DNA of 64,000 nt from an uncultured virus (IMG/VR IMGVR_UViG_3300043811_000078) (IMGVR_UViG_3300043811_000078), one strand, 5' to 3'; shown: positions 5,037 to 30,095, numbered from the stretch's first letter. Made by a program: numbers and translations. The notes: a model not told the origin generated them from the sequence alone.

Positions 5037-5039
5037 CTC

Positions 5040-13759: not shown

Positions 13760-15540
13760 GCGCCCCGACGCTGCCGAACGGCTTCCGGGCCGCACGGGAC
13801 GACGACTTCCCGGCGACGGGGCAGCAGATCGCCCTCGGCCCGCATGAGGAACTGGCGGAGCTGGTACGGCGGGGACGGATGACGCCGGTGCCGGACGTGC
13901 CGTACACGGGACCGGTGACCGGGGACCAGCTTGACTCGCTCGCGGTACTGGAGGCGCTGGGTGAGACGCAGCGGCTTGACCGCGCGCCCTCGGCGTCCCC
14001 GTTCTTGCAGCACCGGGGCGTGTTCCGGACGGGGATTCACCGGGTCAGCCGGTCCGCGGTCGCGCTGGGACTGATCCTGATCGTTCAGGCGGCGCTGTCG
14101 CTAAGGCTCATCTGGTCGAACACGGCGTTCCCCGACGAGGCGCTGTACCTGTGGGCCGGGCACCTGGAGTGGGCGCACTGGCTGCACGGCGCGCCGCTGC
14201 CCGCCTTCCCGACGTATTTCTCCGGAGCCCCGGTCGTGTATCCGCCGGTCGGCGCGCTAGCCGACTCTCTCGGCGGACTGGCCGGCGCCCGGATCCTGTC
14301 CCTGTGCTTCATGCTGACGGCGACATGTCTCCTGCACTCGCTAACGCGGAGCCTGTTCGGCCGGCGTGCGGCTCTGCTTGCGGCGGGCATGTTCGCGGCA
14401 ACTGCGGCGACGCAGTTCCTCGGAGCGTTCGCCACTTATGACTCGATGGCGCTGACGCTGCTGGCATTCGCCGCATGGCTTGCTGTAAAGGCGGCCGAAC
14501 GCGGTTCCGCCGTCGCGGCCTTCGGGATCGCAGGTAGCTGCGGGGCAGTGCTGGCGGTGGCCGACGCGGCGAAGTATGCGGCAGCCCTCTGGAATCCAGT
14601 GGTGGTCGCACTGGTGATCCTGCTCGCGTGGCGGGCGCGAGGCCTCCGTGCCGGCGTCGCCGCAGGTGCCCTGTGCGCAGCGGTGCTCGCCGCTGCTGTC
14701 GCCGCCGCACTGGAGCTCGCAGGGCATCCCTACTGGCGGGGCATCACATTCACCACCCTGGGCCGCGCTCACGGGTCGTCGTCGGCGGCCGGGATCGCCG
14801 CGGACAGCCTCGGCTGGGTTGGCGTAGCGGGGGTCCTCGCCGCGCTCGGCGCGGTAATCATGACCGTCCGGAGCCGCGACCTGCCGCTGAGGCTGACCAC
14901 GTGGGTGCTGGCTGGCGCCATCATCCTCGCACCTGCGAACCAGGCCCGGATTCACGTGTTCACCAGCTTGTTCAAGCACGTGGGGTTCGGGGCGTGGTTC
15001 GCTGCGGCCGCTGCGGGATACGCGCTCGCGTCGCTGGCCGATGCGGTGCCCGCAGCGAAGCGCCACAGCGCACTCCGGGCTGCTGGAGGGGCGATTGCGG
15101 GGGCCGCGCTGCTGGGTGCTGCGCTGGCCGCGACTCATTTCGGGTCATGGCCGGACAGCGCGCAATTCACGGCGAAGCTGCGGACAGTCCTGGCTGGCGA
15201 GCGGGGGCCGGTGCTGGCGGCCGATAACGGCAACGTGATCGAGTACTACCTGCCCGGCGAGGCCGGGGGCGTTGTCTTCTACGGGCCATGGTTCTTCGAC
15301 TACCGGGATCCGGAGACGGGCAAGCACCTTGTCGACGCTCCCGGGTTCGCGGATGCGGTCCGGCACCGGTACTTCTCCGTCGTCGCACTGTCGTTCTCCG
15401 ACTCGCAGCCCGTTGACGTAGAGATCAGTGCCGACATCCGCGCTTACGGCGGCTACCGGCTGGTGTCGGTGCTCCCGTACCGGGTGGCGGGATGGCAGAG
15501 CGCATTCCGGATCTGGGTCCGGGAAGGGGCCTCAAAGTGA
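13756..15540 (+). CDS. GT-C (PMT/ArnT-like) membrane glycosyltransferase
   Basis: AFPDEALYLWAGH, many TM helices. Confidence 0.8.
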   Translation: MSAPTLPNGFRAARDDDFPATGQQIALGPHEELAELVRRGRMTPVPDVPYTGPVTGDQLDSLAVLEALGETQRLDRAPSASPFLQHRGVFRTGIHRVSRSAVALGLILIVQAALSLRLIWSNTAFPDEALYLWAGHLEWAHWLHGAPLPAFPTYFSGAPVVYPPVGALADSLGGLAGARILSLCFMLTATCLLHSLTRSLFGRRAALLAAGMFAATAATQFLGAFATYDSMALTLLAFAAWLAVKAAERGSAVAAFGIAGSCGAVLAVADAAKYAAALWNPVVVALVILLAWRARGLRAGVAAGALCAAVLAAAVAAALELAGHPYWRGITFTTLGRAHGSSSAAGIAADSLGWVGVAGVLAALGAVIMTVRSRDLPLRLTTWVLAGAIILAPANQARIHVFTSLFKHVGFGAWFAAAAAGYALASLADAVPAAKRHSALRAAGGAIAGAALLGAALAATHFGSWPDSAQFTAKLRTVLAGERGPVLAADNGNVIEYYLPGEAGGVVFYGPWFFDYRDPETGKHLVDAPGFADAVRHRYFSVVALSFSDSQPVDVEISADIRAYGGYRLVSVLPYRVAGWQSAFRIWVREGASK

Positions 15541-17075
15541 CCGCGGCTGCTGCCGGGCGTCACCGGTCAGCCCGGAGCCTGATCCTTCCCTCTGCTCCGG
15601 ACGCCGACGAGAAGACGTCGTACGCGTGGCGCTCGCTTCCGCTGCTGACCGGCGCGATCACCGTCAGCGCCCTGTGCATCATCATCGCCCAGGCGTGGCT
15701 TGAGGCCAAGTACCTGGTTGCGCTGCCGTTCGCCGTCTACACGCTCGCCTACCTCGCCTACCAGTGCCTGTCCGTCCCGGTGAACTTCACCGGGGGCAGC
15801 TTCGACCTCGAAGAGCACGAGCTGCGGGTGATGACCTGGCAGCCGGAGCGCTACCCGGACGTCGACGTGTTCCTGCCGGTGTGCGGGGAGCCGCTCGCGG
15901 TGCTGGCCAACACGTGGGAGGGCGTCGCGGAGATGCGCGATTCCTACCCCGGCGACGTGCGCCCGTACGTCCTCGACGACGCCCACGACGACGGCGTGGC
16001 CGCACTGGCGCGCCGGGTCGGCTTCGGGTACGGACGCCGCTCCGAGCGGATCCACAAGAAGGCGGGGAACATCCGGCACGCGTTCGCCCGGACCCGCGGC
16101 GAGCACATCGTGATCTTCGATGCGGACTTCCGGCCCCGCCCCGATTTCCTCGCCGAGACGCTGCCGTACATGGACGACCCTGCGACCGGGATCGTGCAGA
16201 CCCCCCAGTACTTCCGCGTCGCCAAGGGGCAGACGTGGGTGGAGAAGGCCGCAGCGGCGACGCTGGAGGTCTTCTACCGGTCGGTGCAGCAGTCCCGCGA
16301 CCGGTTCGGGTCGGCGCTGTGCGTCGGGTCCAACGCCGTCTACCGCCGTGCCGCGCTCGAGGCCGTGGGCGGCTGTACTCTCATCCCGTACGCGGAGGAC
16401 TCCCACACCGGGCTCGACGCGAGGCGGGCCGGCTACGCGCTGAAGTACCTGCCCGTCCCGCTGGCGGCCGGGGTGTGCCCGTCCGGCATCGACAAGTTCA
16501 TGGGCCAGCAGTACCGGTGGTGCTGCGGAGCCACGTCCCTGGTGTGGACCAAGCACATGTGGCGGGTGCCGATGCCCTGGAAGTCGCGGCTCCCGTACGT
16601 CGCCGGGTGGATGTGGAACTTCACCACTGCACTGCGCACCGTCATCATCCCGCTGATCCCCGTGGTCCTGCTGGCGTTCCTGCCCGCCGAGATCCAGCTC
16701 CGCAACGCGCTGCTGCTCATACCCGCCGTCATCACCGGCACCGTGCTGTACCCGCTGTGGCACAACACGAAGTGGCCGCTCGGGACATGGCCGCTGGCCA
16801 TCGCCGTCGGCTGGGCGCAGGCCCTCGCCTTGTGGGATTTCGCCCGCGGCAACGTCATGTCGTGGCAGCCGACCCGCGGCCCGAAAGACGCCGCGCGGCG
16901 CTTCCGCAAGTGCCTCGTCGCCTGGAACGGGACGCTGGCCGTCGCGTGGCTCGCCCTCGCCGCCTGGCGCATCGCGCAGACCGGCAGCGACCGGTTCGCC
17001 ATCGTCGCCGCCTTCGGCATCGTCAACGCGGTCATCATCGGCCGCATCGCATTCCCCGGAAAGGACGTCTCGTGA
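15537..17075 (+). CDS. Cellulose-synthase-like GT2
   Basis: VLDD, KAGN, FDADF, QTPQ, AEDS, QQYRW. Confidence 0.9.
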   Translation: MTAAAAGRHRSARSLILPSAPDADEKTSYAWRSLPLLTGAITVSALCIIIAQAWLEAKYLVALPFAVYTLAYLAYQCLSVPVNFTGGSFDLEEHELRVMTWQPERYPDVDVFLPVCGEPLAVLANTWEGVAEMRDSYPGDVRPYVLDDAHDDGVAALARRVGFGYGRRSERIHKKAGNIRHAFARTRGEHIVIFDADFRPRPDFLAETLPYMDDPATGIVQTPQYFRVAKGQTWVEKAAAATLEVFYRSVQQSRDRFGSALCVGSNAVYRRAALEAVGGCTLIPYAEDSHTGLDARRAGYALKYLPVPLAAGVCPSGIDKFMGQQYRWCCGATSLVWTKHMWRVPMPWKSRLPYVAGWMWNFTTALRTVIIPLIPVVLLAFLPAEIQLRNALLLIPAVITGTVLYPLWHNTKWPLGTWPLAIAVGWAQALALWDFARGNVMSWQPTRGPKDAARRFRKCLVAWNGTLAVAWLALAAWRIAQTGSDRFAIVAAFGIVNAVIIGRIAFPGKDVS

Positions 17076-17986
17076 AACTCGCCGCCCTCGCAGGCATCGC
17101 CCTGTCCGCCGCCCTCACAGGCTGCGCGGCGACGGCACCTGTCCCGCCGGCCCCTCGCCCGGTGACGATCCCCGCGATCCCGGATTCCCTCAACGGCGTG
17201 TACGAGCCCGGCGCCCCCGCCTCCTATGCCGGGATCACCCGGTTCGCTGCGGCGACTGGCGCCGCGCCGGAGCTGGCCCTCTACTACTCGGCGTGGTTCG
17301 AGCGGTTCGCCGCGGGGTTCGCCGCGCAGGCGCACGCTCACGGCGCGGTCCCGTTCGTCCAGATCCAGTCCGGCCGCGAGCCGCTGGCGGGGATCACGGC
17401 GGGACGCTTCGACGCCTTCCTGCGGGCCTACGCCCTCTCGGTGAAGGCGTACGGGCATCCGGTGGTCCTCAGCTTCGATCACGAGATGAACGGAGGCTGG
17501 TACCCCTGGGGTGCCGGTCACACCGCTCCCGCCGTATACATCGCGGCATGGCGGCACGTCGTGGGCGTCTTCCGCGCCGTCGGCGCATCAAACGTGACGT
17601 GGATGTGGACTGTCAACTCAACCAACGTGGCCACGGATTCCCTGCGCCAGTGGTGGCCAGGATCCGCCTACGTCGGCTGGGTCGGGATCGACGGCTATTA
17701 CTACTACTCCACCGACACCTTCGCGTCGGTGTTCGGCGCGACCGTCGCGCAGGTACGGAAGTTCACCACCGCCCCGGTCCTGATCGCGGAGACCGCGGTG
17801 GGGACGACGGCTGACCGTGACGCGCAGATCACAGGCCTGTTCGCCGGGGTGAAGGCAGACAAGCTGCTCGGCCTGGTGTGGTTCGACGAGAAGCAGGACA
17901 AGGGCGTCTATCACCAGGACTGGCGGCTGGAAAATGACCCGCCTGCGCTCGCCGCGTACCGGGCTGCGGTCAAGGCGGCACGGTGA
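17072..17986 (+). CDS. GH26-like glycoside hydrolase lipoprotein
   Basis: Lipobox LTGC; FDHEMNGGWYPWG; WWPG..YVGWVGIDGY; IAET. Confidence 0.85.
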   Translation: MKLAALAGIALSAALTGCAATAPVPPAPRPVTIPAIPDSLNGVYEPGAPASYAGITRFAAATGAAPELALYYSAWFERFAAGFAAQAHAHGAVPFVQIQSGREPLAGITAGRFDAFLRAYALSVKAYGHPVVLSFDHEMNGGWYPWGAGHTAPAVYIAAWRHVVGVFRAVGASNVTWMWTVNSTNVATDSLRQWWPGSAYVGWVGIDGYYYYSTDTFASVFGATVAQVRKFTTAPVLIAETAVGTTADRDAQITGLFAGVKADKLLGLVWFDEKQDKGVYHQDWRLENDPPALAAYRAAVKAAR

Positions 17987-18444
17987 CCCATCCCCTCACC
18001 ACGGAGGAATTCGACGCGATCTACGCCCGCGTCCCGCGCCTGACCGTGGAGGTCATCCTCCGCGACCACCGCGGCGTGTTCCTCACCCGCCGCGATTCAG
18101 GGCCGTGCGCCGGCCGCTGGCACATCCCCGGCGGCACCGTCCGCTTCGCCGAACCGCTGCACCAGGCCGTGGAACGCGTCGCGCGGGACAAACTCGGCGT
18201 GACCGTCACAGCCTCCCGCCACGCAGGGTTCATCGAGTACCCGTCCCACTACCTGGAGGGCACCGATACCCCGGTGGGGGCGGCGTTCGAGGCGGACTGG
18301 GACGGGGATCCGGTGCCGGTGGCCGGGGCGCTGGACGCGGGATGGTTCACGGCCGCGCCGGACGGGATGCATGACGAGCAGGCCCGGTTCCTCGGATGGC
18401 ACACACAAGACGACCCGGCCGGGACCCCCGGCCGGGCGACCTAG
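17983..18444 (+). CDS. Nudix hydrolase (GDP-mannose hydrolase-like)
   Basis: VPRLTVEVI...WHIPGGTVRFAEPLHQAVERVARDKLG. Confidence 0.8.
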   Translation: MTHPLTTEEFDAIYARVPRLTVEVILRDHRGVFLTRRDSGPCAGRWHIPGGTVRFAEPLHQAVERVARDKLGVTVTASRHAGFIEYPSHYLEGTDTPVGAAFEADWDGDPVPVAGALDAGWFTAAPDGMHDEQARFLGWHTQDDPAGTPGRAT

Positions 18445-18473
18445 CACGACCACGACACAAAGGAACTAGCCCC

Positions 18474-19346
18474 TTGAGAACAGCAAGGATCCTGGCGGCA
18501 GCATCAGCCGTCGCCCTCACGGCCGGACTGGCGCTCGCGCCCGCAGCGGCATCAGCAAGCCCGGCAGCGGTGCCGTCAGCCAGCCCCCGGGTGACGGTCA
18601 GCGGCCCGCTGAGGGCCGCCCCGGCAGCGGAACTGCCCCGCACCCACCTGCCCGCAGTGAAGCCCCAGCGGTCCAGCACCTACTACAGCTCGAACTGGTC
18701 AGGCTGGGTGGCCGCCGCCCGCTCAGGCAAGACGATCACGTCGGCCAGCGTGAACTACACCATCCCGTCGCTCGACAGCGGGAAGTGCACGCCGGGCACG
18801 TCCGGCTACGCATACAACTCCGACTGGGTAGGCCTCGACGGGTTCAGTGACGGGACCGTCGAGCAGACAGGCACCGCGGACTACTGCTACGCAGGCGGCG
18901 GCACCGGCCTCTACGCCTGGTACGAGATGTACCCGCTGAACCCGGTCGCCTACTCCGGGGTGCGCCCCGGCGACGCCATCGACGTGTCGGTGACCTACAG
19001 CACGTCCACCAGGCTGTATCACCTGGTGCTGAAGGACGTGACGATCGATGGCGAGATCTCGGTGTACGAGGGCTGCCCGTCCGGGTCGGTGTGCCATGAC
19101 TCGTCGGCTGAGGTGGTCGACGAGGCCCCCGGCGGCGGTCCCGGCGGCGGCTACAACCTCGCCGACTTCGGCCAGACCGGCTTCACCGCCGCGACCGTCG
19201 CAGGCTCCGGGATCTCCGGGACGCTCGCGTCGTCGGCGGACTGGACCGCCGACGATGTGGTCATGGAGTACGACCACATCATGGACGTCCCGACCGGCCT
19301 CGAAGGCGGCCAGGCGTTCGACTCCGACTGGGAAGCCCCGTATTAA
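18474..19346 (+). CDS. Secreted G1-family glutamic peptidase
   Basis: Signal peptide; SSNWSGW, WVGLDG, EQTGT, AWYEMYP, SAEVVDE. Confidence 0.88.
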   Translation: MRTARILAAASAVALTAGLALAPAAASASPAAVPSASPRVTVSGPLRAAPAAELPRTHLPAVKPQRSSTYYSSNWSGWVAAARSGKTITSASVNYTIPSLDSGKCTPGTSGYAYNSDWVGLDGFSDGTVEQTGTADYCYAGGGTGLYAWYEMYPLNPVAYSGVRPGDAIDVSVTYSTSTRLYHLVLKDVTIDGEISVYEGCPSGSVCHDSSAEVVDEAPGGGPGGGYNLADFGQTGFTAATVAGSGISGTLASSADWTADDVVMEYDHIMDVPTGLEGGQAFDSDWEAPY

Positions 19347-19355
19347 CCCCTGAAC

Positions 19356-19393
19356 GCGGCTGCGGGTACCGCCTTCCCGGTGCCCGCAGCCGC
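19356..19393. terminator. GC-rich hairpin after the peptidase gene
   Basis: GCGGCTGCGGGTACCG / CGGTGCCCGCAGCCGC. Confidence 0.6.
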
Positions 19394-19435
19394 CCTATTG
19401 CAAGCGCACGGAGATGTGCAGAGAGGGGGGAAGCG

Positions 19436-19711
19436 ATGGTCAGCGTGCTGGCGATCATCCTCGTGAGCGGAATACAGGTCGCGCTCGGCGTCATCGTCGG
19501 CTGGGTCCTGGGGCAACGGACCCGGCAGCTTCCCGCGCTGGAGCAGCCCCGGCCTGTATGCGGCTGCACCCACCATTACTCGATGCACGACCCGAAGACG
19601 GGCGAGTGTCAGGTAGCGGTTGGGGATGGCGAGTGCGCTTGCGTCCGCTATACGGGTCCGGTCCCGCTGACCGAGTACTACGCCCCTGATATCACCGGGA
19701 GCGGGCAGTGA
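19436..19711 (+). CDS. Small membrane-anchored Cys/His protein
   Basis: TM helix then CGCTHHYSMHD...CAC..Y. Confidence 0.6.
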   Translation: MVSVLAIILVSGIQVALGVIVGWVLGQRTRQLPALEQPRPVCGCTHHYSMHDPKTGECQVAVGDGECACVRYTGPVPLTEYYAPDITGSGQ

Positions 19712-20156
19712 ACGGGCTGCTCGTCGGCGGCGCCGCCTTTTGCATTGCCGGCGGCCTGGGTGCGCTGGCGGTGAATATCGTCGCGTGGGTGCGCGGCCTC
19801 AGCGACCTTGAGTACTGGTCCTCGGGCATCCTGGCCGTGACGAGCTGGATCCTGGTCCCCGCCTGCCTGCTGTCGGGGGACTGGGTTGCCGCTGCCGAGA
19901 ACGCCGTGCTGTCGGTGATATGGCCGCTGGACTGGTGGCGACAGCGGAGGTCCCGCTCATGATGGCCGTCGCCGCCCTGGGCTGCTGCATCATCCATGCG
20001 GCACTCAACGGTCATGACCCCGTGCTGGCGGGGGCCTTCGCCGTGCTGGCCTACCTGGCGGGCGCCGTCCTGACCCTGGCCTCCGTGGCCGGCGGCAACT
20101 GGCCCGGCGTCCTCCTCGGTGCCATGTTCTGCGGCTACTGGACGCTGGCCTGGTGA
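19708..20156 (+). CDS. Two small hydrophobic membrane proteins (19708..19962 and 19959..20156)
   Basis: Overlapping start/stop codons; hydrophobic sequences. Confidence 0.5.
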
Positions 20157-20556
20157 TCCGCGAATGATGCGTCCCGGCTGACGTAACAGCCGGCGAGAGA
20201 ACACCTGATGAGGACAGGAGAGAAGAACGTGGACATCGTAGACCGCAGGACGATGGAAGGACGGAAGGTGGACGGCAGCGAGGCAATAGCCAGGGTCAAG
20301 GCGCTCAGCGAGACCGACAGGGCCTACTTGCTGTACTGGCTGGCCAGCAAGCACCCGGCGACGGTGGACTCGGGCATATCCAGTCTGGAGTTGCACGACA
20401 TGATCGCCAAGGAGGCGGCCGGGGAGTGAACCCGGCCGCGTTGCCTGCGGCCGGGAGCACGCGATCCAGGGCATCACGCACGATGCCCGTTTTAACCCCG
20501 CATCACAGTACACGTCCCGTCACGGAGACGAGGACACAGGAGAGAGGGTAACGGAA

Positions 20557-20766
20557 ATGAGCACAGCCATAGCCGATTACGAGGCACTGCTGACCCCCGC
20601 CGAGGTCGCGACGATGTTCCGCGTCGACCCGAAGACCGTGACACGGTGGGCGAAGGCAGGCAAGCTCACATCAATCCGAACGCTGGGCGGGCACCGGCGC
20701 TACCGTGAGACCGAGGTCCGGGCGCTGCTAGCCGGGATCCCCGTGCGCCTGGCGCAAGCGTCCTGA
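20557..20766 (+). CDS. bldC: BldC-family MerR-like regulator
   Basis: LLTPAEVATMFRVDPKTVTRWAKAGKLTSIRTLGGHRRYRETEVRALL, the BldC signature. Confidence 0.92.
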   Translation: MSTAIADYEALLTPAEVATMFRVDPKTVTRWAKAGKLTSIRTLGGHRRYRETEVRALLAGIPVRLAQAS

Positions 20767-21082
20767 CTGCCCGGTGCTGTCGTAAGCGGCACCGCAAGAC
20801 GTGACCGTGCGGGACCGCGGACCCCCCCTCCGCGCTCCCGCACGGCACGCGAAGCCCCGCCCCCTGTCACCGGCCCCCAGCTGACCTGCCCGGCCAGTTG
20901 CCGGCAGGCCGCGAAGCGGGACAACGGAGACGGGGGGCGGGGCGACCGGAAAACAATGCAACGGGGAACTGGACGTTAAATAACTCAAGGCAAACCCGGT
21001 ATTAGCAGCCGGGTTTACTTTGCATACCCGGAAATGCATAACACCAGCTCACAGTACGATTCCGGTTAATTGCCGGATGCGT

Positions 21083-21139
21083 TTGACATGGCTGTACGCG
21101 ACCGGTAGCTTTCCGTTCCGCGAGAGAAAAGAAAGGAGG
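21083..21139 (+). promoter_or_regulatory. Housekeeping-type promoter and RBS of the CRISPR effector
   Basis: TTGACA (21083)-N17-TAGCTT (21106); AAAGGAGG at 21132. Confidence 0.8.
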
Positions 21140-21148
21140 CGACCATCA

Positions 21149-23785
21149 GTGCCCACGGAAATCAGGATGATCCAGCAGGCGTATAAATTCGCACTGGACC
21201 CGACACCCGCGCAGGCCCGGATGTTCGCCTCTTTCGCGGGCGCGAAGCGCGCATCGTTCAACTTCGCCCACGCCATGATCATGGCGGGGGCCGACGCCTG
21301 CAAAGCCAGGAAGGACGAGCTCGTTCTCCGGTACCTGTCCGAGGGGCTGAGCGAATCCGAGGCGGCACGCAAAGCCAAAGCCGAGGCCGAGGCCGCGATC
21401 CCGGTTCCCCGGCAGATGAAAATCCCGGACCCCGCAGACCCCAGGAAGATCAGGGTTCTCCACAGAGGGGTCGGCGTCGAATGGACCGAGTTCACGCGCA
21501 CCGCCGTGGGCTGCACGACCTGCCGGCGCCTCCTCGCCCGCGACCCCGGATCAAGCGCCCCGTGGGCCGACGCCCGCACCGGCAGCGTTACCTGCGACCC
21601 TGACGTGCTGAAACGCCTCGGCATCGAGGGGGAACCTGGACCGCACGACCCCACCGGCGTCGGCTGCAAACGCTGCTGGAACCCCCTGCACCAGGCCCCG
21701 GACGGCACCTGGGCAGACAAGAACGGCTCGGGCGCCTGCCCCGAGGCCCGCGAGGCCGGCGCACCCCACGAGCCGCGCAGCGACTTCATGGCCTGGACGA
21801 AGGACGTGTTCTCCGGCACGATACAGGCCGCCCACCGCGACGCCGACGTTGCATGGCAGCGGTTCCTGCACGGGAAATCCCGCCGCCCCCGGTTCAAGAA
21901 GAAAGGCAAGTGCACCGAGTCGTTCCAGGTGCACGGCGACGACCTGGGCATCCCGGAGACGACGGAGGCGGAAAGGATAAGGATCCCGGAGGCGGTGGCC
22001 GCCCTCAGGCCGCACGGGAAACGCCCGGTGCAGCAGCAGACCGCGCAGCACATCACGCTCCCGAAAATCGGCCCGGTCCGGGTCATGTCCGACGACAGCC
22101 TGCACCCGGCGATGCGGCGCAGCCGCCGCAGGGGCTCCGGCGTGACGCCCGCGCGCCGGCCGGGACGCAAGCTCAAAGCGGCCCGGGCGCGCCTCGAAGC
22201 GGCCGGGCGCGCTTACGAGCATGCAGCCGAGACCATGCCGGAGATCCCCGCGTCCACCCTGCATGAGGTCAGCGCCGCCCGGGATGCTGCCGCCAGGGCA
22301 GAACAGGCCGTCGCGTACGCCAGGCAGCGCGACGCCGGGCACGGCCGCCACATGGGAAACCGCCGGCGCTTCCGTCAGCTGCACCGGCACATGCGCAAGA
22401 GCAGCGAGAAAGCCGCCCGGCTCGGCCCGCTGCTGCGGCAGGTCCGCGAAGACGCCGGCTGGACCCTCGATCAGGCCGTGGCCCTCCTCGGTGCCGAGGC
22501 TGACGCCCGTGCGGTCGCCGCCGTGCGGGTACGTCTCGCCGCCGCCGAGGATGCCGTAGCCATCGCGGCTGCTGCTGCCGCTGAAGCCGTGGCCGCAGGA
22601 GACGCCGAGGGCGCTGCGGCGGCGGAGAAAGACCAGAGGAACGCGCGGAACCGCGTCAAGGGCGCACTGAAGAGGCTGGGGGACCTGGCTGCCGCGAAGC
22701 CGGGGGAGAAAGCGTCCCGCACCGACCGGTGGAGTGCCGCCAAGCTGAAGAAGCTGGAAGCTACCGGGGTCACGCTGGGCCTGGACCAAGCCAGCGTCAT
22801 CTGCTCCGCCTACCAGCTTGCCGGCCCTCTCCGCGAGCAGGTGACGGACCTCGCCGCGCAGGCCAGGATCGTCCGCGCCACCATCACCCTCGGCGCCGAC
22901 GGCCTGTGGTGGTGCTCAGCCGGCGCCGAGGTCCCGTATGCCGTGCGCACCGCGCCGTCGAAGCGCCAGGAAGCGCGGGGAACTGCCGGGATCGACTTCG
23001 GCACCGCGCGGATCATGACGGTGACCGGCCGGCGCCCTGCCGGTGCCCCCGGCTACTACGAGAAGGAACTGGCAGCGCTCAGTGCCGCCCAGCGGCACGC
23101 CGCCCGCGCTGTCCCCGGCTCGGGGCGGCACCGCAAGGCGACGGCGAAAGCCGGGCTCATCCACGCCGACGTGGCCAGGCTCCGTGCCGACACCCTGCAC
23201 CGGGCCACGACGAGCCTGAGCCGGAACTTCTCCGCGCTCAGCTTCGAGGGCTTCAACGTGCAGCAGCTGATGCGGGACGGCTCCCGGGGGCTGCCCCGCC
23301 AGGCGCGCGGGCGCCGGAACCGGTCGCTCGCGGACACGGGCATCGGCATGGCCCGTGACATGCTCCGGAACAAGGGTCCGAGGTGGGGTGCGACAGTGGT
23401 CGCGCTCGGCCCGGACGTCATCACGATCACAGGACCCCGGCCGGAGGACGCGAGAGAAGCGGACCTCCCGCCGGGTGCGAAGCCGAACGGCACATGCGCC
23501 GGGTGCGGGCAGGCGAGAACCAAGCCAGCCCGCCCTCATGAGGCGCTGTACCGGTGTGACGCGTGCGGTCGCGTCAGGCTGCGCACCCTCAACAGCGCTG
23601 AGAACATCCGCCGGTGGGCGGATGAGGCGCTTACCGCAGATCCCGGCTGCGCAACCAGCGGGCCGGATCAGTCTCGTGGAGGAGATGAACCCGCGACAGT
23701 AGGTGCGGGACGATCTCCGGTGAAGCGAGCAGCCATAACCTCATCGCGGCCGCGCCGCGGTGAGGCTGGCACCCCTGGCGGGTAA
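21149..23785 (+). CDS. 878-aa TnpB-derived, CRISPR-adjacent type V-like effector; RuvC probably inactive
   Basis: OrfB N-terminus AYKFALDPTPAQ; PRFKKK; ITLPKIG; RuvC-I GIDFG (D616); RuvC-II SFEG (E700); CAGC..CDAC Zn finger; RuvC-III LRTLNSAENI. Confidence 0.9.
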   Translation: MPTEIRMIQQAYKFALDPTPAQARMFASFAGAKRASFNFAHAMIMAGADACKARKDELVLRYLSEGLSESEAARKAKAEAEAAIPVPRQMKIPDPADPRKIRVLHRGVGVEWTEFTRTAVGCTTCRRLLARDPGSSAPWADARTGSVTCDPDVLKRLGIEGEPGPHDPTGVGCKRCWNPLHQAPDGTWADKNGSGACPEAREAGAPHEPRSDFMAWTKDVFSGTIQAAHRDADVAWQRFLHGKSRRPRFKKKGKCTESFQVHGDDLGIPETTEAERIRIPEAVAALRPHGKRPVQQQTAQHITLPKIGPVRVMSDDSLHPAMRRSRRRGSGVTPARRPGRKLKAARARLEAAGRAYEHAAETMPEIPASTLHEVSAARDAAARAEQAVAYARQRDAGHGRHMGNRRRFRQLHRHMRKSSEKAARLGPLLRQVREDAGWTLDQAVALLGAEADARAVAAVRVRLAAAEDAVAIAAAAAAEAVAAGDAEGAAAAEKDQRNARNRVKGALKRLGDLAAAKPGEKASRTDRWSAAKLKKLEATGVTLGLDQASVICSAYQLAGPLREQVTDLAAQARIVRATITLGADGLWWCSAGAEVPYAVRTAPSKRQEARGTAGIDFGTARIMTVTGRRPAGAPGYYEKELAALSAAQRHAARAVPGSGRHRKATAKAGLIHADVARLRADTLHRATTSLSRNFSALSFEGFNVQQLMRDGSRGLPRQARGRRNRSLADTGIGMARDMLRNKGPRWGATVVALGPDVITITGPRPEDAREADLPPGAKPNGTCAGCGQARTKPARPHEALYRCDACGRVRLRTLNSAENIRRWADEALTADPGCATSGPDQSRGGDEPATVGAGRSPVKRAAITSSRPRRGEAGTPGG

Positions 23786-23820
23786 CTGCCAGGCGTCCCA
23801 TGCACTGCCCATGGCGGGCA
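23673..23820 (+). ncRNA. Omega-RNA/tracr-like structured RNA overlapping the effector 3' end
   Basis: CTCG-TGGA-GGAGAT..ATCTCC-GGTGAAG-CGAG nested stems, a 12-bp hairpin, and CCTGGCGG-GTAA-CTGCCAGG. Confidence 0.6.
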
Positions 23821-23871
23821 CGCCTAACTCAATAGCGGATATTGCGCGCACAAACTTGCTGGCCGCGAAGA

Positions 23872-25604
23872 GTGCGGCCCACGGGCGCTGGGGCGACGGG
23901 TCACCGGCCTGATCTCGCGGAAGGCCCGTGAGGTGCGGCCCACGGGCGCTGGGGCGACGGGACCACGCCGAGTTCGTGCCCGCTACCCGGGATGTGCGGC
24001 CCACGGGCGCTGGGGCGACGGGCTCTCCGCGGACAACCAGGTGATCTACACAACGTGCGGCCCACGGGCGCTGGGGCGACGGTTGGCAGAAAATCTCCGA
24101 TGATTACCGTCTCTGGTGCGGCCCACGGGCGCTGGGGCGACGGTTGGCCTGTCCGGCTCTTGGATGCCGGTCGCTTGTGCGGCCCACGGGCGCTGGGGCG
24201 ACGGGGACACCGGTCCCCGCCGCGCCGGTGCGCATCAGTGCGGCCCACGGGCGCTGGGGCGACGGATTGACCTCACATGGACAACGTGGACGGACAAAGT
24301 GCGGCCCACGGGCGCTGGGGCGACGGGACTCCGCCGAGCCGCCGGGCCGAGCTGGAGATGTGCGGCCCACGGGCGCTGGGGCGACGGCTGGAATTGCCTA
24401 GAGATATGCCAAGTCTCTACGTGCGGCCCACGGGCGCTGGGGCGACGGTCCACTACCGGTCAATCTCCCGAGTCCGGGAATAGTGCGGCCCACGGGCGCT
24501 GGGGCGACGGTTTACCACGACATGCTGACGAGCGGTGGCCGGAGTGCGGCCCACGGGCGCTGGGGCGACGGTCCCTTTGCCCGCTGTGCACGGGCCGTGG
24601 GCAGGTGCGGCCCACGGGCGCTGGGGCGACGGGTAGTCCCTGTTACTTGGGCGTAATATCCGGACGTGCGGCCCACGGGCGCTGGGGCGACGGGCATGAT
24701 CAGTAAGCAGTCCCCTCGCGATCGAGTGTGCGGCCCACGGGCGCTGGGGCGACGGCTTGACCCGAAGTTCTGGTTGCTTGACCTCAGTGTGCGGCCCACG
24801 GGCGCTGGGGCGACGGTTGCTGAGCTGAGCGTTCGGCGCCCTCGAAAGGGTGCGGCCCACGGGCGCTGGGGCGACGGGACACCGCTCATATCCTGCGCCA
24901 TCGAGATGGCGTGCGGCCCACGGGCGCTGGGGCGACGGGAATGAACATTGCTACTCTTTGCTCAGAATGTGGTGCGGCCCACGGGCGCTGGGGCGACGGT
25001 ATGTCGGCCCGTCGGTTGGCTAGGGACGGGAGGTGCGGCCCACGGGCGCTGGGGCGACGGTGAACCTGACTCAGATGGTGATGGAGGCCGAAGGTGCGGC
25101 CCACGGGCGCTGGGGCGACGGGCCAAGGCGCAGCCCCCACCATGAGCGGTTGGTGTGCGGCCCACGGGCGCTGGGGCGACGGACCGGCGTGCCGCGTTCG
25201 CGATCGAGGCTTCGTGTGCGGCCCACGGGCGCTGGGGCGACGGTCTGAGAACTCGGGACTGGCAACAGCGTGCTGTGTGCGGCCCACGGGCGCTGGGGCG
25301 ACGGGAGGTCGGCCCGCTACATCGTCCGTGACGCCAGGTGCGGCCCACGGGCGCTGGGGCGACGGGCCACCGGGCACCGGGGTGAAACGCACGCCGGAGT
25401 GCGGCCCACAGGCGCTGGGGCGACGGGATGACGCTGCCGGGCACGGCCAGCAGCGCGATGTGCGGCCCACGGGCGCTGGGGCGACGGTTTGATATTTTGC
25501 TGGGTGTTAGTGCCTTCGTCGTGCCGGCCTGCGGGCGCGGGGACGGCGGTACAAGGTGGGTAATCGAGGCAAGGAGCCACGCGTGCGGCCCGCAGGGGCG
25601 ACGG
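23872..25604 (+). CRISPR. Type I-E-like CRISPR array: 27 intact repeats (one with a SNP) plus 2 degenerate distal repeats; 28 spacers
   Basis: GTGCGGCCCACGGGCGCTGGGGCGACGG at 61-nt period; spacers 33 nt (two of 34 nt); degenerate copies at 25521 and 25583, possible remnant at 25641. Confidence 0.99.
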
Positions 25605-25758
25605 TCTGGTCAGCAAGGGGCGCCTGTCCGGCATTAGCAGGCGCGGCCCGCAGATCCGGGTCTGGCCGACCCGGAATCTGGCGCGCGGGATGACGGCCGA
25701 GTTGCAGGAGGGTCCAGGGGGCGGCGGGTTCCTTGACTGGCAGAGGGGAGCGCGACAA

Positions 25759-26694
25759 ATGAAAGGCGCATTACCGGCCAAAGCGACGGAACTCAGCCGC
25801 ATCAGCGACCGGCTCAGCTTCCTGCACGTTGAGCATGCAAGGATCGACCGCGACCTGAACGCAGTCACCATCTGGCAAGCCGAAGGGGTCGCGAGCATCC
25901 CCGCTGCTGTGCTCGCGGCGCTTCTCCTCGGCCCCGGCGTGACGATCACCCACGCCGCCATCTCGCTCCTGGCCGGCAGCGGGTGCACCGTCGCGTGGGT
26001 GGGCGAGGAAGGCGTCCGCCTCTACGCCGGCACCACGGCAGCAGCGGCATCGTCGGTGCTGCTGCAACGGCAGGCCGCGCTCGTCACCGGGCAGAAAACC
26101 CGCATCGCCGTCGCCCGGCAGATGTACGCGATGCGGTTCCCCGGCGAGGATGTCTCCCGGCTGAGCATGCAGCAACTGCGCGGCCGGGAAGGCGCCCGGG
26201 TCCGCGCCTGCTACCGGCTGCACGCAGAGAAAACCGGCACCGCATGGCGCGGCCGGAGATACGACCCGAAGGACTGGAGCGCGGGTGACCCGGTGAACAG
26301 GTGCCTGTCGGCCGCGAACTCCGCCCTCTACGGCATCACCCACGCCGCGATCCTGCACCTCGGGTGCAGTCCAGGGCTCGGATTCGTCCACACCGGGCAC
26401 CAGCTGTCCTTCGTGTACGACATCGCGGACCTGTACAAGGCGGAGGTCACGATCCCGGCGGCGTTCGGGATCGCCGCGGAAGGCGGCCGGGATCTCGGGG
26501 CTAAGACCAGGCGCGCGGTGCGGGACGCGATCGTCTCAGCGCGGCTGCTGCCCCGCATCGCCGATGACATCCGGGGACTGCTCGGCGCCCCCGGAGATGA
26601 CGGCGAGACAGTCGCGGGGATCGCGGTGCCGGACCTGATCGACGACCACGGCACTGTGCCGGGCGGCGTCAGCTACGGGGAGGACGGGCCGTGA
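25759..26694 (+). CDS. cas1: Type I-E Cas1
   Basis: DRLSFLHVEH, LLLGPGVTITH, WVGEEGVRLYA, QLRGREGARVR, SPGLGFVHTG, FVYDIADLYK. Confidence 0.97.
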   Translation: MKGALPAKATELSRISDRLSFLHVEHARIDRDLNAVTIWQAEGVASIPAAVLAALLLGPGVTITHAAISLLAGSGCTVAWVGEEGVRLYAGTTAAAASSVLLQRQAALVTGQKTRIAVARQMYAMRFPGEDVSRLSMQQLRGREGARVRACYRLHAEKTGTAWRGRRYDPKDWSAGDPVNRCLSAANSALYGITHAAILHLGCSPGLGFVHTGHQLSFVYDIADLYKAEVTIPAAFGIAAEGGRDLGAKTRRAVRDAIVSARLLPRIADDIRGLLGAPGDDGETVAGIAVPDLIDDHGTVPGGVSYGEDGP

Positions 26695-26984
26695 TCGTCC
26701 TTGTCCTCACTTCGGTGCCGCCGGGGCTGCGCGGCGACCTGTCCCGGTGGCTCCTGGAGATCGCCCCGGGCGTGTTCACCGGGAAAGTATCGCGGCGTGT
26801 CCGGGAGCACCTGTGGCGCCGGGTCCGGTTCGGCGTCCTGCAAGGAGGGTCGGCGGTCATGGTGGTCACTGACCGGGGCAGGGAGCAAGGCTGCGAGATC
26901 CTGACGGCCGGGGCGGGACGGTGGACGGCGGCGGACTTCGAGGGGCTGACGCTGATGGTCAGGCCGCGTCCGGGAACACGGTGA
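26691..26984 (+). CDS. cas2: Type I-E Cas2
   Basis: VPPGLRGDLSRWLLEIAPGVFTGKVSRRVREHLW...DFEGLTLM. Confidence 0.96.
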   Translation: MIVLVLTSVPPGLRGDLSRWLLEIAPGVFTGKVSRRVREHLWRRVRFGVLQGGSAVMVVTDRGREQGCEILTAGAGRWTAADFEGLTLMVRPRPGTR

Positions 26985-27036
26985 GCCCCCCGCGCGGGGG
27001 CGTCCGGAAGACAGCAACGAAAGGAGGAAGGGACCC

Positions 27037-27605
27037 ATGGCACGCATCCCGGACATCATCGCCGGCGCGCTCGCTGCGGAGATCAAGAGCCGCACCGGGT
27101 GGGACGAGGCCCCCGGGCTGTACTTCCTGTACCTGCGGGGGGGGAGCCCCGGATCCGGGAAATCCCGGTACCTCCCGCGTTCTGGGCGCAGGACCGGCCC
27201 CCTCTGGTCCTGGCGTACATGGCCGCCAGTCTCGGCGACTTCGGCCCGCTGCTCCAGGCGCATGCGCCGGAAGGGCTGCACGGCGCGGCGTTCCGCTGCG
27301 AGTCATGGATGGTTGCCGAGGGTGCGCCGGGAACGCCGGAGACCGACGGCATCAGGGCGGACGCCAGGGCGCACCGGCTGCACATGCGCCCCGACCGGAT
27401 CGAAGCGCGGACCATGCTCGCAGTGGACCGCGCCGGGATCACCTACAGCGCGGCGCAGGTGCGCGGCCAGGACGACGTGCGGACATCGGTCACGTACCCG
27501 GGGCCGGGGAAACCCGGCGTCTCCGGTACTGTCCCGTCTGCGCTCGATGCGATCGTGACCGCGCTGCTCGGCGTCGGGATTCCGGCACGGCCTGATCCGG
27601 GCTGA
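27037..27605 (+). pseudogene. Hypothetical gene frameshifted at a G8 tract
   Basis: RBS AAGGAGG; adding one G at 27137-27144 joins MARIPDII...LRGG to EPRIREIP...PDPG. Confidence 0.7.
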
Positions 27606-27659
27606 TCCGGTAAGGCAACCTGCACGCGGCCCGGCGCGTCTGATGAGCGCCCCGGTGCC

Positions 27660-27745
27660 GGCCCCGTACGGCACACCCCCCCTCGTGCCGTACGGGGCCA
27701 CGAGGAATGGAGTGAGCCCCCGGCATTACCCGATGCCGGGGGCTC
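27660..27745. terminator. Two strong hairpins between convergent units
   Basis: GGCCCCGTACGGCAC/GTGCCGTACGGGGCC and GAGCCCCCGGCAT/ATGCCGGGGGCTC. Confidence 0.7.
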
Positions 27746-27803
27746 TTGTATCCGCCCATCTGCGCACGCCAGCGGCGTTTAAGACCGCAGGTCATCTCTC
27801 AGG

Positions 27804-27875
27804 CCCGGTGCTCTGCCTATTGAGCTACAGCGCCACGTGGAGGCGCCGGAAGGGCTCGAACCCTCAACCTCCGGA
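27804..27875 (-). ncRNA. Circularly permuted tRNA-like (YrlA-like) module 2
   Basis: TCCGG, T arm GAGGG-TTCGAGC-CCTTC, looped acceptor CGGCGCC/GGCGCTG, D arm TAGCTCAATAGGCAGAGC, CCGGG. Confidence 0.75.
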
Positions 27876-27952
27876 AGCGTTGCCTGCGGTCGGTCGATCT
27901 GGCGTTAAGCGGCAATGCTGAGCCTGGAGCGAGAATCTGAGCCTGGCGGTTG

Positions 27953-28025
27953 CCGGATGCCTCTACCGGGTGGGCTACCGGCCATCGAGTTGGCCGGGGA
28001 GGAGTCGAACCTCCGCTTGGTCCGG
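27953..28025 (-). ncRNA. Circularly permuted tRNA-like (YrlA-like) module 1
   Basis: CCGGA, T arm GGAGG-TTCGACT-CCTCC, looped acceptor CCGGCCA/TGGCCGG, D-like arm with GGTA, TCCGG. Confidence 0.75.
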
Positions 28026-28078
28026 GCGTACCTGATTCAGGTGTGATCTTCAGTTTCAGCTTGCGCTCGCGGAGAAGT

Positions 28079-28813
28079 CTACGCGGCGAACAGCCAGGAG
28101 AAGACAGCCTCGCCGGCCTTCTGATCGGCGACCTCGACGCCGTTGGCCTCCTCGCGGGCGAACTTCACCGCATGCTGGAGCGCCGTGACGCGGCCCAGCA
28201 GCGTCCGGACCCGCGACGCGGGGAGGGCGCCGGAGAACTTAACTGTCGTCCAGTCACCCTCGGGCACGTCCTCCATGTACACCTGCACCTGCGCCGGGTG
28301 TTCCTTGGTCGCCTCGGCGAGAGTGTGGTTGCGGGGGATCTTCTTGCCGCGCACCGTCTTGACGGGAGGCGTCGCGTAGCAGCCCCGCGCCGAGTCGAAC
28401 GCCCACTCTTCCGAGGGGTCGAGCACGGGGAGCTTGGCGACGAAGGTGTGCAGGTCGGTGAGCTGCTTCTCCAGGAACAGCAGGTAGGTGACCGGCACGT
28501 CGCGCAGGATCGTCTCCCCTTCGACGGTGACGTCGGCGCGGGCCGCCGTGTTGGCGTGGTCCTTCGTCAACGTGATGTCGAACAGCCGCGTCATCGCCGC
28601 CGCGGCTTCCGCCAGCACGTCCGGCGCGGTGGCCTGGACCCTCGTGGATTCTGCGGGGAGCTGGTCGCCGTCGTCGGCGCGCGGCTGGTAGGTGCGCGAG
28701 ATGCCGGACAGTAGCTGGGGTTTCTGCACGTCCCGGTGCAGGTCGGTGATGCGCCGGGAGGCGTCGGACTTGACGCCCTTCTCGACGGCGATGATCTGGC
28801 TGAGTCTCGTCAT
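28079..28813 (-). CDS. Conserved-looking hypothetical protein directly upstream of the tRNA-like RNAs
   Basis: MTRLSQIIAVEKGVKS...VPVTYLLFLEKQL...AVKFAREEAN; strong codon bias. Confidence 0.85.
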   Translation of the reverse strand: MTRLSQIIAVEKGVKSDASRRITDLHRDVQKPQLLSGISRTYQPRADDGDQLPAESTRVQATAPDVLAEAAAAMTRLFDITLTKDHANTAARADVTVEGETILRDVPVTYLLFLEKQLTDLHTFVAKLPVLDPSEEWAFDSARGCYATPPVKTVRGKKIPRNHTLAEATKEHPAQVQVYMEDVPEGDWTTVKFSGALPASRVRTLLGRVTALQHAVKFAREEANGVEVADQKAGEAVFSWLFAA

Positions 28814-28936
28814 GGGTACAGATCGTAGTCCCGCATCGCCCTTATCCCGGAACGCAGAAAACCGCCCCCGCCGCCAGTCCGCGAGGACCGGCGGCGGGGG
28901 GCGGCATGCGTGAGGGCTGCTGGCCGCGTCCGGTGC

Positions 28937-29221
28937 CTACATGCCAGGGGCAAGCTCCCCGGCGATCCGCGTGATCACCTTCACGGCGTCGCCGAGCGCG
29001 GCGCTTGCCGCTGCCACTTCCGGGGACGCGGCCGGGTCGATCGTCTTCACGACCGTTTCGAGGGTGGTCGCGACGGTCGCCAGGGACGGGGCGGCCTCGC
29101 GGAGCTTGGCCACGTCGGCGCGGAGGGCGGCCAGTTCCGGGGCGATGTCCCGTTCGAACCAGGAGCGGATGTGCGCTAGCGGCCCCGGTGTCTCTGCGGC
29201 TGATCCGGCAGTGTCGGTCAT
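28937..29221 (-). CDS. Hypothetical protein
   Basis: RBS GAAAGGA; followed by a hairpin at 28862-28904. Confidence 0.6.
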   Translation of the reverse strand: MTDTAGSAAETPGPLAHIRSWFERDIAPELAALRADVAKLREAAPSLATVATTLETVVKTIDPAASPEVAAASAALGDAVKVITRIAGELAPGM

Positions 29222-29273
29222 GGGGGTTCCTTTCGTCGGTGGAATGTCAGTGAGGGGCGTTATCGTGGCTTCT

Positions 29274-29717
29274 ATGCCGTCGCGTGATTACGGGCCGCAC
29301 CAGCTAGCGGACCATCTCGGCACCTGGCACAGCCAGGTCGACCGGGCGCGGGACTTCGGGCTGCTCCCGGCACCCGACCGGCCGCGCGGACGCTGGTCGG
29401 CTGAGGCAGCAGAAGACATCCGTGAACGGTGGCCCGAGATCAAGGCGGCGACCGAGTGCACCGGCGCGGCCGGGCTGAAGAAACGCGGCTGGACAGAGGC
29501 GATGATCCGGGACCTGCTCGGCGCCCCGGATCTGCACGTGAAGAACCCGCACGTCTCCAGCGCCGCCCCGATGAGGCTGTGGCGCGTCCAGAGGGCCGCG
29601 GCGATCGAAGCCACACCGGAGTTCGCGCAGCGGCAGGAGCGTGCCCTGCGGTCGTGCGCAGCCGCCGCCAGGGCGTCGGAGACCCGGAAGATCTGGAAGG
29701 TGCTCGGGGGCAGCTAA
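29274..29717 (+). CDS. Hypothetical protein, possibly DNA-binding
   Basis: LKKRGWTEAMIRDLLGAPD...NPH...APMRLW. Confidence 0.6.
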   Translation: MPSRDYGPHQLADHLGTWHSQVDRARDFGLLPAPDRPRGRWSAEAAEDIRERWPEIKAATECTGAAGLKKRGWTEAMIRDLLGAPDLHVKNPHVSSAAPMRLWRVQRAAAIEATPEFAQRQERALRSCAAAARASETRKIWKVLGGS

Positions 29718-29808
29718 CTCCCCGGTGGCTTCGCTACTTCGGTTGACATGCGCGCTCCATTGCGGCATTATTGGTGATGTCAGCAAAGAGCAACCCGAGG
29801 AGCACCAG

Positions 29809-30094: not shown

Positions 30095-30095
30095 C

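Follow-up and report, generated by a model that had tools for sequence, protein, structure and literature searches.

An omega-RNA-derived scaffold as the likely tracrRNA of a Cas12n-related CRISPR system in an uncultured virus

Introduction

How does a TnpB-type protein come to be served by a CRISPR array, and which RNA joins the two? This question is raised by a 64 000-nt stretch of DNA from an uncultured virus (IMG/VR IMGVR_UViG_3300043811_000078), referred to below as the window and numbered from its first nucleotide. A TnpB-derived effector gene (21167..23785, + strand) is followed there by a CRISPR array (23872..25487, + strand). In a first-pass annotation made from the sequence, the 3′ end of the gene was described as a retained omega-RNA-like scaffold that might now act in the manner of a tracrRNA (trans-activating CRISPR RNA). 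The analysis reported here makes it quite likely that the RNA of 23624..23838 (+ strand), descended from the omega RNA of an IS607-type TnpB, acts as tracrRNA in a CRISPR system that is akin to Cas12n (type V-N, formerly V-U4) but stands outside it.

A conserved RNA structure at the 3′ end of the effector gene

The scaffold, whose start lies at 23624-23673, overlaps the last ~37 codons of the 872-aa gene, which ends at 23785. Its parts are, in order, a 5′ stem, helices P1-P3 (23673-23729), hairpin A, hairpin B, an anti-repeat, hairpin C and the terminal motif CTCAATAGCGG. Within P1-P3, CTCGT (23673-23677) pairs with GCGAG (23725-23729), GGAGAT (23681-23686) with ATCTCC (23713-23718) and CCCGC (23690-23694) with GCGGG (23705-23709). 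Hairpin A has 12 bp (23739-23765), hairpin B has an 8-bp stem closed by a GTAA loop (23774-23793), the TAA of which is the stop codon of the effector gene (23783-23785), and hairpin C is formed by TGCCC/GGGCA (23806-23820). When the 215 nt of 23624-23838 were folded, a free energy of -108.6 kcal/mol was obtained, compared with -91.05 ± 4.52 for shuffled sequences (z -3.88; 0 of 200 shuffles as good).

Related loci were retrieved from genomes and metagenomes with homologue profiles A1 and A2; a search of viral and genome contig collections with the single protein gave no close relatives, and exact-pattern scans of viral contigs for the left flank and for the repeat gave no match. The window protein belongs to a clade whose members score at least 465 bits against profile A1, compared with at most 247 for ordinary TnpBs of the insertion sequence (IS) type. 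Within this clade, a CRISPR array starts ~60-140 nt after the gene stop (86 nt in the window) in eight independent lineages, namely the window, L002, L004, L005, L007, L083/84, L086 and L087/88; L079, L082 and L085 were left out, their contigs being cut off before the end of the effector gene.

Eight loci were aligned (alignment A4) and scored on the structure proposed by RNAalifold for the same eight sequences. Pairing was kept in 94.8% of 364 cells, against 82.7 ± 1.3% in shuffles, and both sides had changed in 24 of the 47 pairs, against 11.6 ± 2.1 in shuffles, none of 500 shuffles reaching 24. With partners slid by 1-3 columns, pairing fell to 37-51% and at most five pairs showed double changes. 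All eight pairs of hairpin B were doubly changed. A pseudoknot between the repeat-final CGG and a YCG 5′ of P1 was predicted as well; it was left out of the tested structure and is too short to judge. The folded stretch is thus a real, conserved RNA structure. Every stem listed in the first-pass annotation (the P1-P3 region, the 12-bp hairpin, the GTAA hairpin and TGCCC/GGGCA) lies where it had been drawn and carries compensatory changes over eight loci, and the covariation that it had named as a check is present.

Conservation of this stretch might also be due to a functional C-terminal peptide, with the stems incidental. The protein tail (RGGD...RSPVKRAA...GETGTPGG) is indeed conserved across the clade, and its residues S850, K853, R854 and A856 are invariant. 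A peptide does not account, however, for the compensatory changes, for a structure that extends beyond the stop codon, or for the match of IS-type relatives to an RNA family of Rfam at this place (see below). In L004 the open reading frame (ORF) ends 5 nt upstream of P1, and in L003 it reads on in a different frame. The G+C content at third codon positions (GC3) drops from 0.85 in the gene to 0.62 in the final 220 nt of the ORF, and the tail (residues 826-872) is predicted to be disordered, with a predicted local distance difference test (pLDDT) score of 25-30. Because of this collapse of GC3, the early stop in L004 and the disordered tail, protein coding fails to explain the conservation of the scaffold, and the peptide explanation is considered highly improbable.

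Hairpin C follows the anti-repeat only in the long-form loci (window, L084 and L086). Its 3′ strand could alternatively pair with the 5′ end of the repeat (9 bp in L086), which would extend the anti-repeat; with RNAduplex this pairing was inconsistent across loci. Soil-run variants lack 6 nt, in frame, from the tip of hairpin A (window 23745-23750).

Homology of the scaffold with transposon omega RNAs

The Rfam family RF03015 (Transposase-2 RNA) was found above its gathering score in 7 of the 10 loci searched, i.e. in the clade members L007 (54.8) and L003 (46.7) and in five IS-type loci; its threshold was not reached by L004, L084 and L086. In NCBIfam the clade members are nearest to IS607-type TnpB. 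The IS-type TnpB relatives from Actinomycetota show the same order of elements at their 3′ end, with hairpin B, a terminal hairpin, (N)AACGG and then unrelated DNA. Two IS copies of one genome (L037 and L040) are identical through ...GGTAACGGT and divergent past that point, which therefore marks the end of the IS and the start of the guide. The last four bases of the window repeat, ACGG, match the AACGG found before the guide in the transposon omega RNAs. Judged from sequence and layout, the scaffold and the omega RNA of actinobacterial IS607-type TnpBs are homologous. The omega-like layout described in the first-pass annotation was therefore upheld, with IS607-type rather than IS605-type elements as the relatives.

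The scaffold shares with TnpB omega RNAs of family RF03015 its position at the 3′ end of the gene, the order of its stems and the GTAA hairpin. It differs from them as follows. The terminal hairpin, present in cis in the transposon RNAs, is absent in cis from the window scaffold, and both a fixed guide and a transposon end are missing, the scaffold being followed by a 33-nt remnant of a type I-E leader and 27 repeats.

An anti-repeat in place of the terminal hairpin

Immediately 3′ of hairpin B, the terminal hairpin of the IS relatives is replaced by CGTCCCA (23794..23800, + strand), which pairs with nt 18-24 of the repeat (TGGGGCG, one G-U pair) and leaves ACGG next to the spacer; the last 11 nt of the repeat are UGGGGCGACGG. 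Every one of the eight loci has kept this 7-bp helix; 100% of its cells are paired, and three of the seven pairs show double changes. Compensated examples are CATCCCC/GGGGATG (L084), CGTCCTC/GAGGACG (L007) and CGTCCCT/AGGGACG (L087 and L004). RNAalifold recovered the helix unprompted, so that the co-folding with the repeat suggested in the first-pass annotation gave a positive result. The annotation had also proposed that CGTCCCATGCAC (23794-23805) pairs with the ends of the repeat; it had the right place and the wrong register, as the partners are CGTCCCA and nt 18-24 instead of GACG, TGGG and GTGC.

One member of the clade, L003 from Jiangella anatolica, lacks an array. Its hairpin B runs into CACCCC, a short loop, GGGGATG-ACGG and, beyond that, unique DNA; read from the sequence, the L003 RNA is the anti-repeat:repeat helix fused in cis. 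L003 was placed in the unresolved base of the clade in a quick tree, and its fused form could be ancestral or result from a secondary re-fusion. The presence of fused and split forms in one clade makes the split of an omega RNA into tracrRNA and CRISPR RNA (crRNA) testable. The fused omega-like RNA (L003 7230-7400) is flanked by two crcB genes, and fluoride riboswitches are found close by. A search of its own genome with the L003 guide gave no convincing second target, the best having 2 mismatches, and the reversed control had hits too.

In the proposed mechanism, the scaffold (P1-P3 and hairpins A and B) would bind the effector as an omega RNA binds TnpB. The terminal hairpin of the transposon relatives would be made in trans, CGUCCCA being given by the scaffold and UGGGGCG, ACGG and the spacer by the repeat unit. 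The tracrRNA:crRNA pair would then rebuild a complete omega RNA with an exchangeable guide.

RNA from the scaffold in a soil metatranscriptome

Four sequencing runs were mapped on 19800-27200, and one of them, X12 from soil, is a metatranscriptome. It contains a 215-nt contig that corresponds exactly to 23624-23838, with 0 mismatches and a depth of 7.3, while 25 of the 30 bins of the region are without cover. Besides this contig, X12 yielded mismatched sequences that resemble the BldC-type gene, 77 nt at the right edge and an exact 33-nt match of spacer 13. No X12 cover was found on the array or on the effector messenger RNA, which is uninformative either way. The contig terminates at the final base of ...CAATAGCGG, a conserved motif that resembles the ...TCAATTGCAACGG end of the IS-type omega RNAs. 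This end lies 34 nt upstream of the first repeat, and an assembly break induced by the repeats therefore does not explain it. The contig thus hints at a discrete scaffold RNA. Together with the covarying 7-bp helix and the fused RNA of L003, it speaks for the tracr-like role that had been suggested from the sequence.

The scaffold might instead act in cis only, as the 5′ part of a long gene-to-array transcript (as a leader, promoter or processing element), with the effector using crRNA alone. One strand carries scaffold, leader and array contiguously, and no promoter or terminator separating them was found in a consensus scan that was itself uninformative. The 33 nt before the array are a I-E leader remnant, the RNAalifold structure joins the anti-repeat in cis to the first repeat, and Cas12r is reported as tracrRNA-free (bioRxiv 10.64898/2026.04.20.719267). 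Set against this, the RNA contig ends at 23838, short of the first repeat, and the homologues of the scaffold, omega RNAs, bind TnpB. The anti-repeat of each locus tracks the repeat consensus of that locus's own array, and Cas12n, with the same layout, uses a tracrRNA (PMC12216341). A role in cis only is accordingly unlikely, and a tracrRNA is preferred.

The effector and its loss of the RuvC-III aspartate

The effector gene starts with ATG at 21167; an alternative GTG start at 21149, behind AGGAGG, would give 878 aa. The protein matches OrfB_IS605 and HTH_OrfB_IS605 in Pfam and guided_TnpB in NCBIfam (103.4 bits, cut-off 100), and its best hit in PADLOC is Cas12u4 (165.6 bits). An AlphaFold2 model was obtained with a pLDDT of 77.7. 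Its best fold match is ISDra2 TnpB, and the fold search also returned Cas12f, Cas12p, Cas12m2 (E 5.6e-7), LaTranC and RdCas12n. Proteins at the base of the clade have ~440-530 aa and those of the window branch 740-880 aa, the increase being due to helical and Cys-rich insertions.

D610 of RuvC-I and E694 of RuvC-II are kept and are invariant in the clade. At RuvC-III, Thr807 stands in the alignment opposite D484, the catalytic residue of RdCas12n. This Asp position is occupied by Arg (25) or Thr (5) in 30 of 30 clade rows, three further rows being truncated, while Asp was present in 45 of the 46 IS-type rows in which the motif was found (16 rows gave no motif). From this comparison, the clade effector probably binds DNA without cutting it and would act as a silencer in the manner of Cas12m. 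Impaired or unused RuvC domains and silencing by binding are described for Cas12m (V-M), Cas12c and TldR (PMC10691335, PMC13565253). The window clade is of another lineage than these, its profile hit to Cas12m4a being just 5.9e-7. If Arg or Thr abolishes cleavage, the system would be a self-adapting RNA-guided DNA binder on a prophage-like element.

The RuvC data also bear on the possibility that an ordinary IS607-type transposon with its omega RNA lies by chance beside a I-E array, with no functional link between them. The protein passes the guided_TnpB model, the array, cas1 and cas2 are of I-E type, and the nearest record compared (G001, an IMG/VR virus record) shows that the segment can be absent. 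The catalytic Asp is nevertheless lost in all 30 rows, anti-repeat and repeat covary, and the juxtaposition recurs in eight lineages of a deep clade whose proteins are 37-93% identical. IS elements carry TnpA and occur in multiple copies, whereas in the window the helix-turn-helix (HTH) gene 5′ of the effector gene has only a weak match (26.5 bits, cut-off 110) to the IS607 transposase model and no second tnpB was found among the ORFs of at least 140 aa in 12000-32000. The clade is also rare, unlike a spreading IS: at E ≤1e-60, none of 399 additional genomes sampled from the class contained it. A chance neighbourhood is therefore very improbable.

In the metagenome contigs L083 (57-1751) and L082 (34-1677), a second TnpB-like ORF lies directly 5′ of the effector gene; it has an intact DRD and is of the IS200/IS605 type (359.6 bits).

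Relation to Cas12n and other known systems

Searched against the Protein Data Bank, the clade profile matched RdCas12n best (9J09, E 1.2e-49), followed by an AI-designed RNA-guided nuclease (9YYG, 4.7e-45), ISDra2 TnpB (1e-42), LaTranC (4e-18) and Cas12m4a (about 6e-7). With the single window protein, RdCas12n (2.5e-9) and TnpB (7.7e-9) were about equal. When the Cas12u4 model was run over 401 sampled genomes of the class, 33 matched at E ≤1e-80; the top five scored 547-651 bits, and the clade member L003 scored 329, within the range of the IS-type TnpBs. The locus with 651 bits (L114) has hairpin B, CATCCTCC, a I-E-type leader end (...CCCAGGTCGAAAAGT) and repeats with GGGGGATG that end in GATCG, and its anti-repeat:repeat pairing is in the same register as in the window. 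In two other strong Cas12u4 loci (L115 2990-3030 and L116 3370-3410), a single repeat-like unit follows the leader motif, with no array. L116 has His at the RuvC-III Asp position.

In a quick tree, the window clade, V-U4 and the IS-type TnpBs were each split off by a branch with a Shimodaira-Hasegawa-like approximate likelihood-ratio test (SH-aLRT) value of 96-100; both trees of this work are quick IQ-TREE estimates, rooted at the midpoint and supported by SH-aLRT values alone. In this tree the window clade is distinct from Cas12n, to which it would be sister if the root is on the IS branch.

The likeness to Cas12n extends to the RNA. The single-guide RNA of RdCas12n, reported with five stems, includes a 170-nt tracrRNA that overlaps the ORF; the fifth stem joins tracrRNA and crRNA, and a 3-bp pseudoknot is formed from the last bases of the scaffold (PMC12216341). 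The overlap with the 3′ end of the ORF and the disordered C-terminal tail are as in the window, and the strong Cas12u4 loci have hairpin B, anti-repeat, I-E-type leader end and I-E-like repeats in the same order as the window clade. The 5′-AAN recognized by Cas12n can be compared with the 5′ AA beside the protospacers of two window spacers (n = 2). The differences are the replacement of the RuvC-III Asp by Arg or Thr, the end of the repeats (GACGG in the window clade, GATCG in L114), the 872-aa size of the window protein with its long helical and Cys-rich insertions, and the presence of cas1e-cas2e beside the array.

TranC systems are transposon-CRISPR intermediates in which the omega RNA is split into tracrRNA and crRNA (Jin 2025, as cited in PMC13565253). 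The window clade has this concept in common with them and holds both the fused form (L003) and split forms. Cas12r of Thermus Lalka phages is a TnpB-like effector that comes with a short array, similar to type I-E in repeat length, spacer length and protospacer-adjacent motif (PAM), and it has been proposed to use I-E adaptation. Unlike what is proposed for the window, it is reported to be tracrRNA-free, to need an active RuvC and to have no adaptation genes of its own (bioRxiv 10.64898/2026.04.20.719267).

A tracrRNA overlapping the end of the gene (Cas12n, PMC12216341), the split of an omega RNA (Jin 2025, via PMC13565253) and a phage TnpB-like effector with I-E-like arrays (Cas12r) are thus already in print, and the first of these is not new here. 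'TnpB-to-Cas12 intermediate', the term of the first-pass annotation, is a fair description, with the reservations that this kind of system is known from Cas12n and TranC and that the window protein is a derived and enlarged member, probably without nuclease activity, and not a primitive one. In the literature compared, which left the primary papers on Cas12n and TranC outside, no clade was found that combines a Cas12n-like scaffold, the loss of the RuvC-III Asp and its own cas1e-cas2e. The clade may be one of V-U6 to V-U45 (PMC10691335). V-U24 of the same source was considered and set aside; it is HTH-associated but has a non-canonical RuvC-I, whereas that of the window clade is canonical.

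An array, leader end and adaptation genes of type I-E

The array consists of 27 repeats of 28 nt (GTGCGGCCCACGGGCGCTGGGGCGACGG; 0 expected by chance) and 26 spacers of 33-34 nt, with a period of 61 nt. It reads in the same direction as the effector gene, and its leader is on the left. The single mutated repeat (25399) is the penultimate one at the right end, and a degenerate remnant lies further right (25584-25605); this decay at the right end agrees with a leader on the left. Between the scaffold and the first repeat lie the last 33 nt of the leader (23839..23871, + strand). The leader ends in CAGGTCnnnnAAGT directly before the repeat in seven of eight clade loci and, in the window, in the diverged form CTGGCCGCGAAGA.

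Two host genomes of relatives provided bona fide I-E loci. In L090 the leader ends in ...CGCAGGTCGGTAAGT immediately 5′ of the repeat, and L105 has a variant of this end. Seven of the eight clade loci have the CAGGTC....AAGT of the L090 leader in front of their first repeat, and the 33 nt between scaffold and first repeat are therefore read as the end of a I-E leader. Clade repeats are identical to the L090 repeat at 14-17 of 28-29 positions; their I-E hairpin has degenerated and the portion that faces the anti-repeat has been retained. Downstream of the array, cas1e (25690..26694, + strand) was identified by TIGR03638 (361.1 bits, cut-off 215.6) and PADLOC Cas1e (423.8 bits), and cas2e (26691..26984, + strand) by TIGR01873 (64.4 bits, cut-off 33.15) and PADLOC Cas2e (113.3 bits). 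As far as these comparisons go, the array, the ~30-nt leader end and cas1e-cas2e derive from type I-E.

Adaptation of type I-E places the PAM-proximal end of a spacer beside the 3′ end of the upstream repeat, the side on which the guide of TnpB and Cas12 begins. With array, leader end and cas1e-cas2e taken from type I-E, spacers would be delivered in the orientation that a TnpB/Cas12-type effector needs.

The leader end, the size of repeats and spacers and cas1e-cas2e point to a captured I-E array, which bears on the origin of type V arrays. It is possible, as a rather tentative proposal, that the clade, perhaps together with Cas12n, records a birth of type V by such capture and not by duplication of an omega RNA segment. 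An IS607-type TnpB would have landed ~30 nt 5′ of the first repeat of a I-E array. The 3′ end of the repeat would then have been remodelled so that it pairs with the omega scaffold, replacing the terminal hairpin, and ends in an omega-like ACGG. The outcome would be an adaptive, probably nuclease-free effector fed by Cas1e-Cas2e, with which a prophage-like element silences competing elements. As an origin of type V arrays, insertion of TnpB beside existing arrays is said in PMC10691335 to be one that 'cannot be ruled out'.

The I-E character of the array also allows the effector to be seen as a decaying relic, with the scaffold a fossil and the array serviced in trans by a I-E Cascade of the host. 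In favour of this view, the clade is without the RuvC-III Asp, the gene is gone from G001, cas1e loci occur elsewhere in 2 of 4 host genomes of relatives, and Cascade genes and cas3 were matched by 0 of the 60 window ORFs. On the other side, 30 of 33 clade rows are open through RuvC-III, the remaining three being cut by contig ends, and the window gene keeps a GC3 of 0.85. In G002 the clade repeat is confined to the TnpB-linked array, and the one I-E array found in that genome differs by >3 mismatches. The I-E hairpin of the repeat is the part that decayed and the part facing the anti-repeat is the one that was kept, and scaffold RNA is present in an RNA library. There is little chance that the effector is such a relic, and a Cas12n-related system with the scaffold as its tracrRNA remains the preferred reading.

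No spacer targets were found in the phage collection, the window itself or the fetched loci. In the soil runs, spacer 13 (24633-24665) has an exact 33-nt match with non-repeat flanks in DNA run X1 and in RNA run X12, and spacer 26 (25428-25459) has a 32-nt match with non-repeat flanks in X5. Their 5′ flanks are ...GAGAA (spacer 13) and ...GGGAAA (spacer 26), compatible, for n = 2, with an AA-type PAM as in type I-E (AAG) and Cas12n (AAN). The sequence matched by spacer 13 seems to run from a stop codon across a short intergenic stretch into the following ATG. Two array variants from soil runs omit several repeat-spacer units (window 24786-25214 and 24206-25478). At the degenerate array of L002, a 3′ ORF (4857-5507) has full-length, sub-threshold Cas6e matches (Pfam 24.2 of 25 bits, NCBIfam 19.3 of 45.2 bits) and may be a relic of a I-E operon.

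Probable loss of the segment in a related virus

G001 matches 18713-20218 of the window at 100% identity and 24844-27500 at 99.96%, the two parts being joined directly. It is without 20219-24849, i.e. the small ORF, the HTH gene, the effector gene, the scaffold, the leader and 16 leader-side repeat-spacer units, and it retains 11 repeat-spacer units, cas1e and cas2e. GA.AGG microhomology is present on both sides of the junction, and the first repeat of G001 is without the leader motif. Since effector, leader and array co-occur across the clade and G001 lacks the leader motif, a deletion in G001 appears more likely than an insertion in the window.

Strength of the tracrRNA assignment

Several points weigh against the scaffold being the tracrRNA of a non-cutting effector. 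The window scores 23.8 bits against RF03015, whose threshold is 42.7, so that the search with omega-RNA models suggested at the outset was positive for 7 of 10 related loci and sub-threshold for the window itself. Taking the tested structure from RNAalifold on the same eight sequences favours structure somewhat. The anti-repeat has 7 bp only, and no longer or second conserved tracrRNA:repeat pairing was found with RNAduplex, for which many duplexes score alike in such GC-rich RNA. Support from RNA is a single contig from a single run of one study; strand and true ends cannot be read from contigs, and carry-over of DNA in X12 cannot be fully excluded. A related phage system with I-E-like repeats, Cas12r, is reported to work on crRNA alone (bioRxiv 10.64898/2026.04.20.719267). 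G001 lost effector and leader, and the system is therefore dispensable there. We infer the binding of the scaffold by the effector and the requirement for a tracrRNA, and crRNA processing is likewise presumed; the proposed loss of cleavage follows from one residue, with D610 and E694 invariant.

Genomic surroundings

The 4.6-kb segment absent from G001 begins with a small ORF of 73 aa (20208..20429, + strand; GC3 0.86), for which no family match was found in Pfam, NCBIfam, PHROGs or PADLOC. It is followed, 5′ of the effector gene, by the HTH gene, which encodes a 69-aa BldC-family protein of the MerR/excisionase type (20557..20766, + strand; NCBIfam HTH_BldC 107.8 bits, cut-off 77; Pfam HTH_17 1.5e-13). 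Homologues of this protein are also encoded upstream of the effector gene in L080 and L081.

Further out, the window encodes a DNA methyltransferase-like protein with DrmMI and type IIG matches (1297-2655), an integrase (9990-11468), a DUF7873 protein (28079-28813), an endolysin (30742-31593) and a tape-measure protein (45653-49417), and additionally minor tail proteins. The integrase, endolysin and tail genes, and the fact that G001 is a virus record, suggest that the CRISPR locus belongs to, or adjoins, a prophage-like element. The stretch from the integrase to the CRISPR locus contains glycosyltransferase-like genes and one for a peptidase A4. In L086, the region 3′ of the array (10092-17500) holds fragments of cas1e and cas2e, a tyrosine integrase, a TROVE-domain protein and 18 transfer RNA genes, a neighbourhood that suggests another mobile element.

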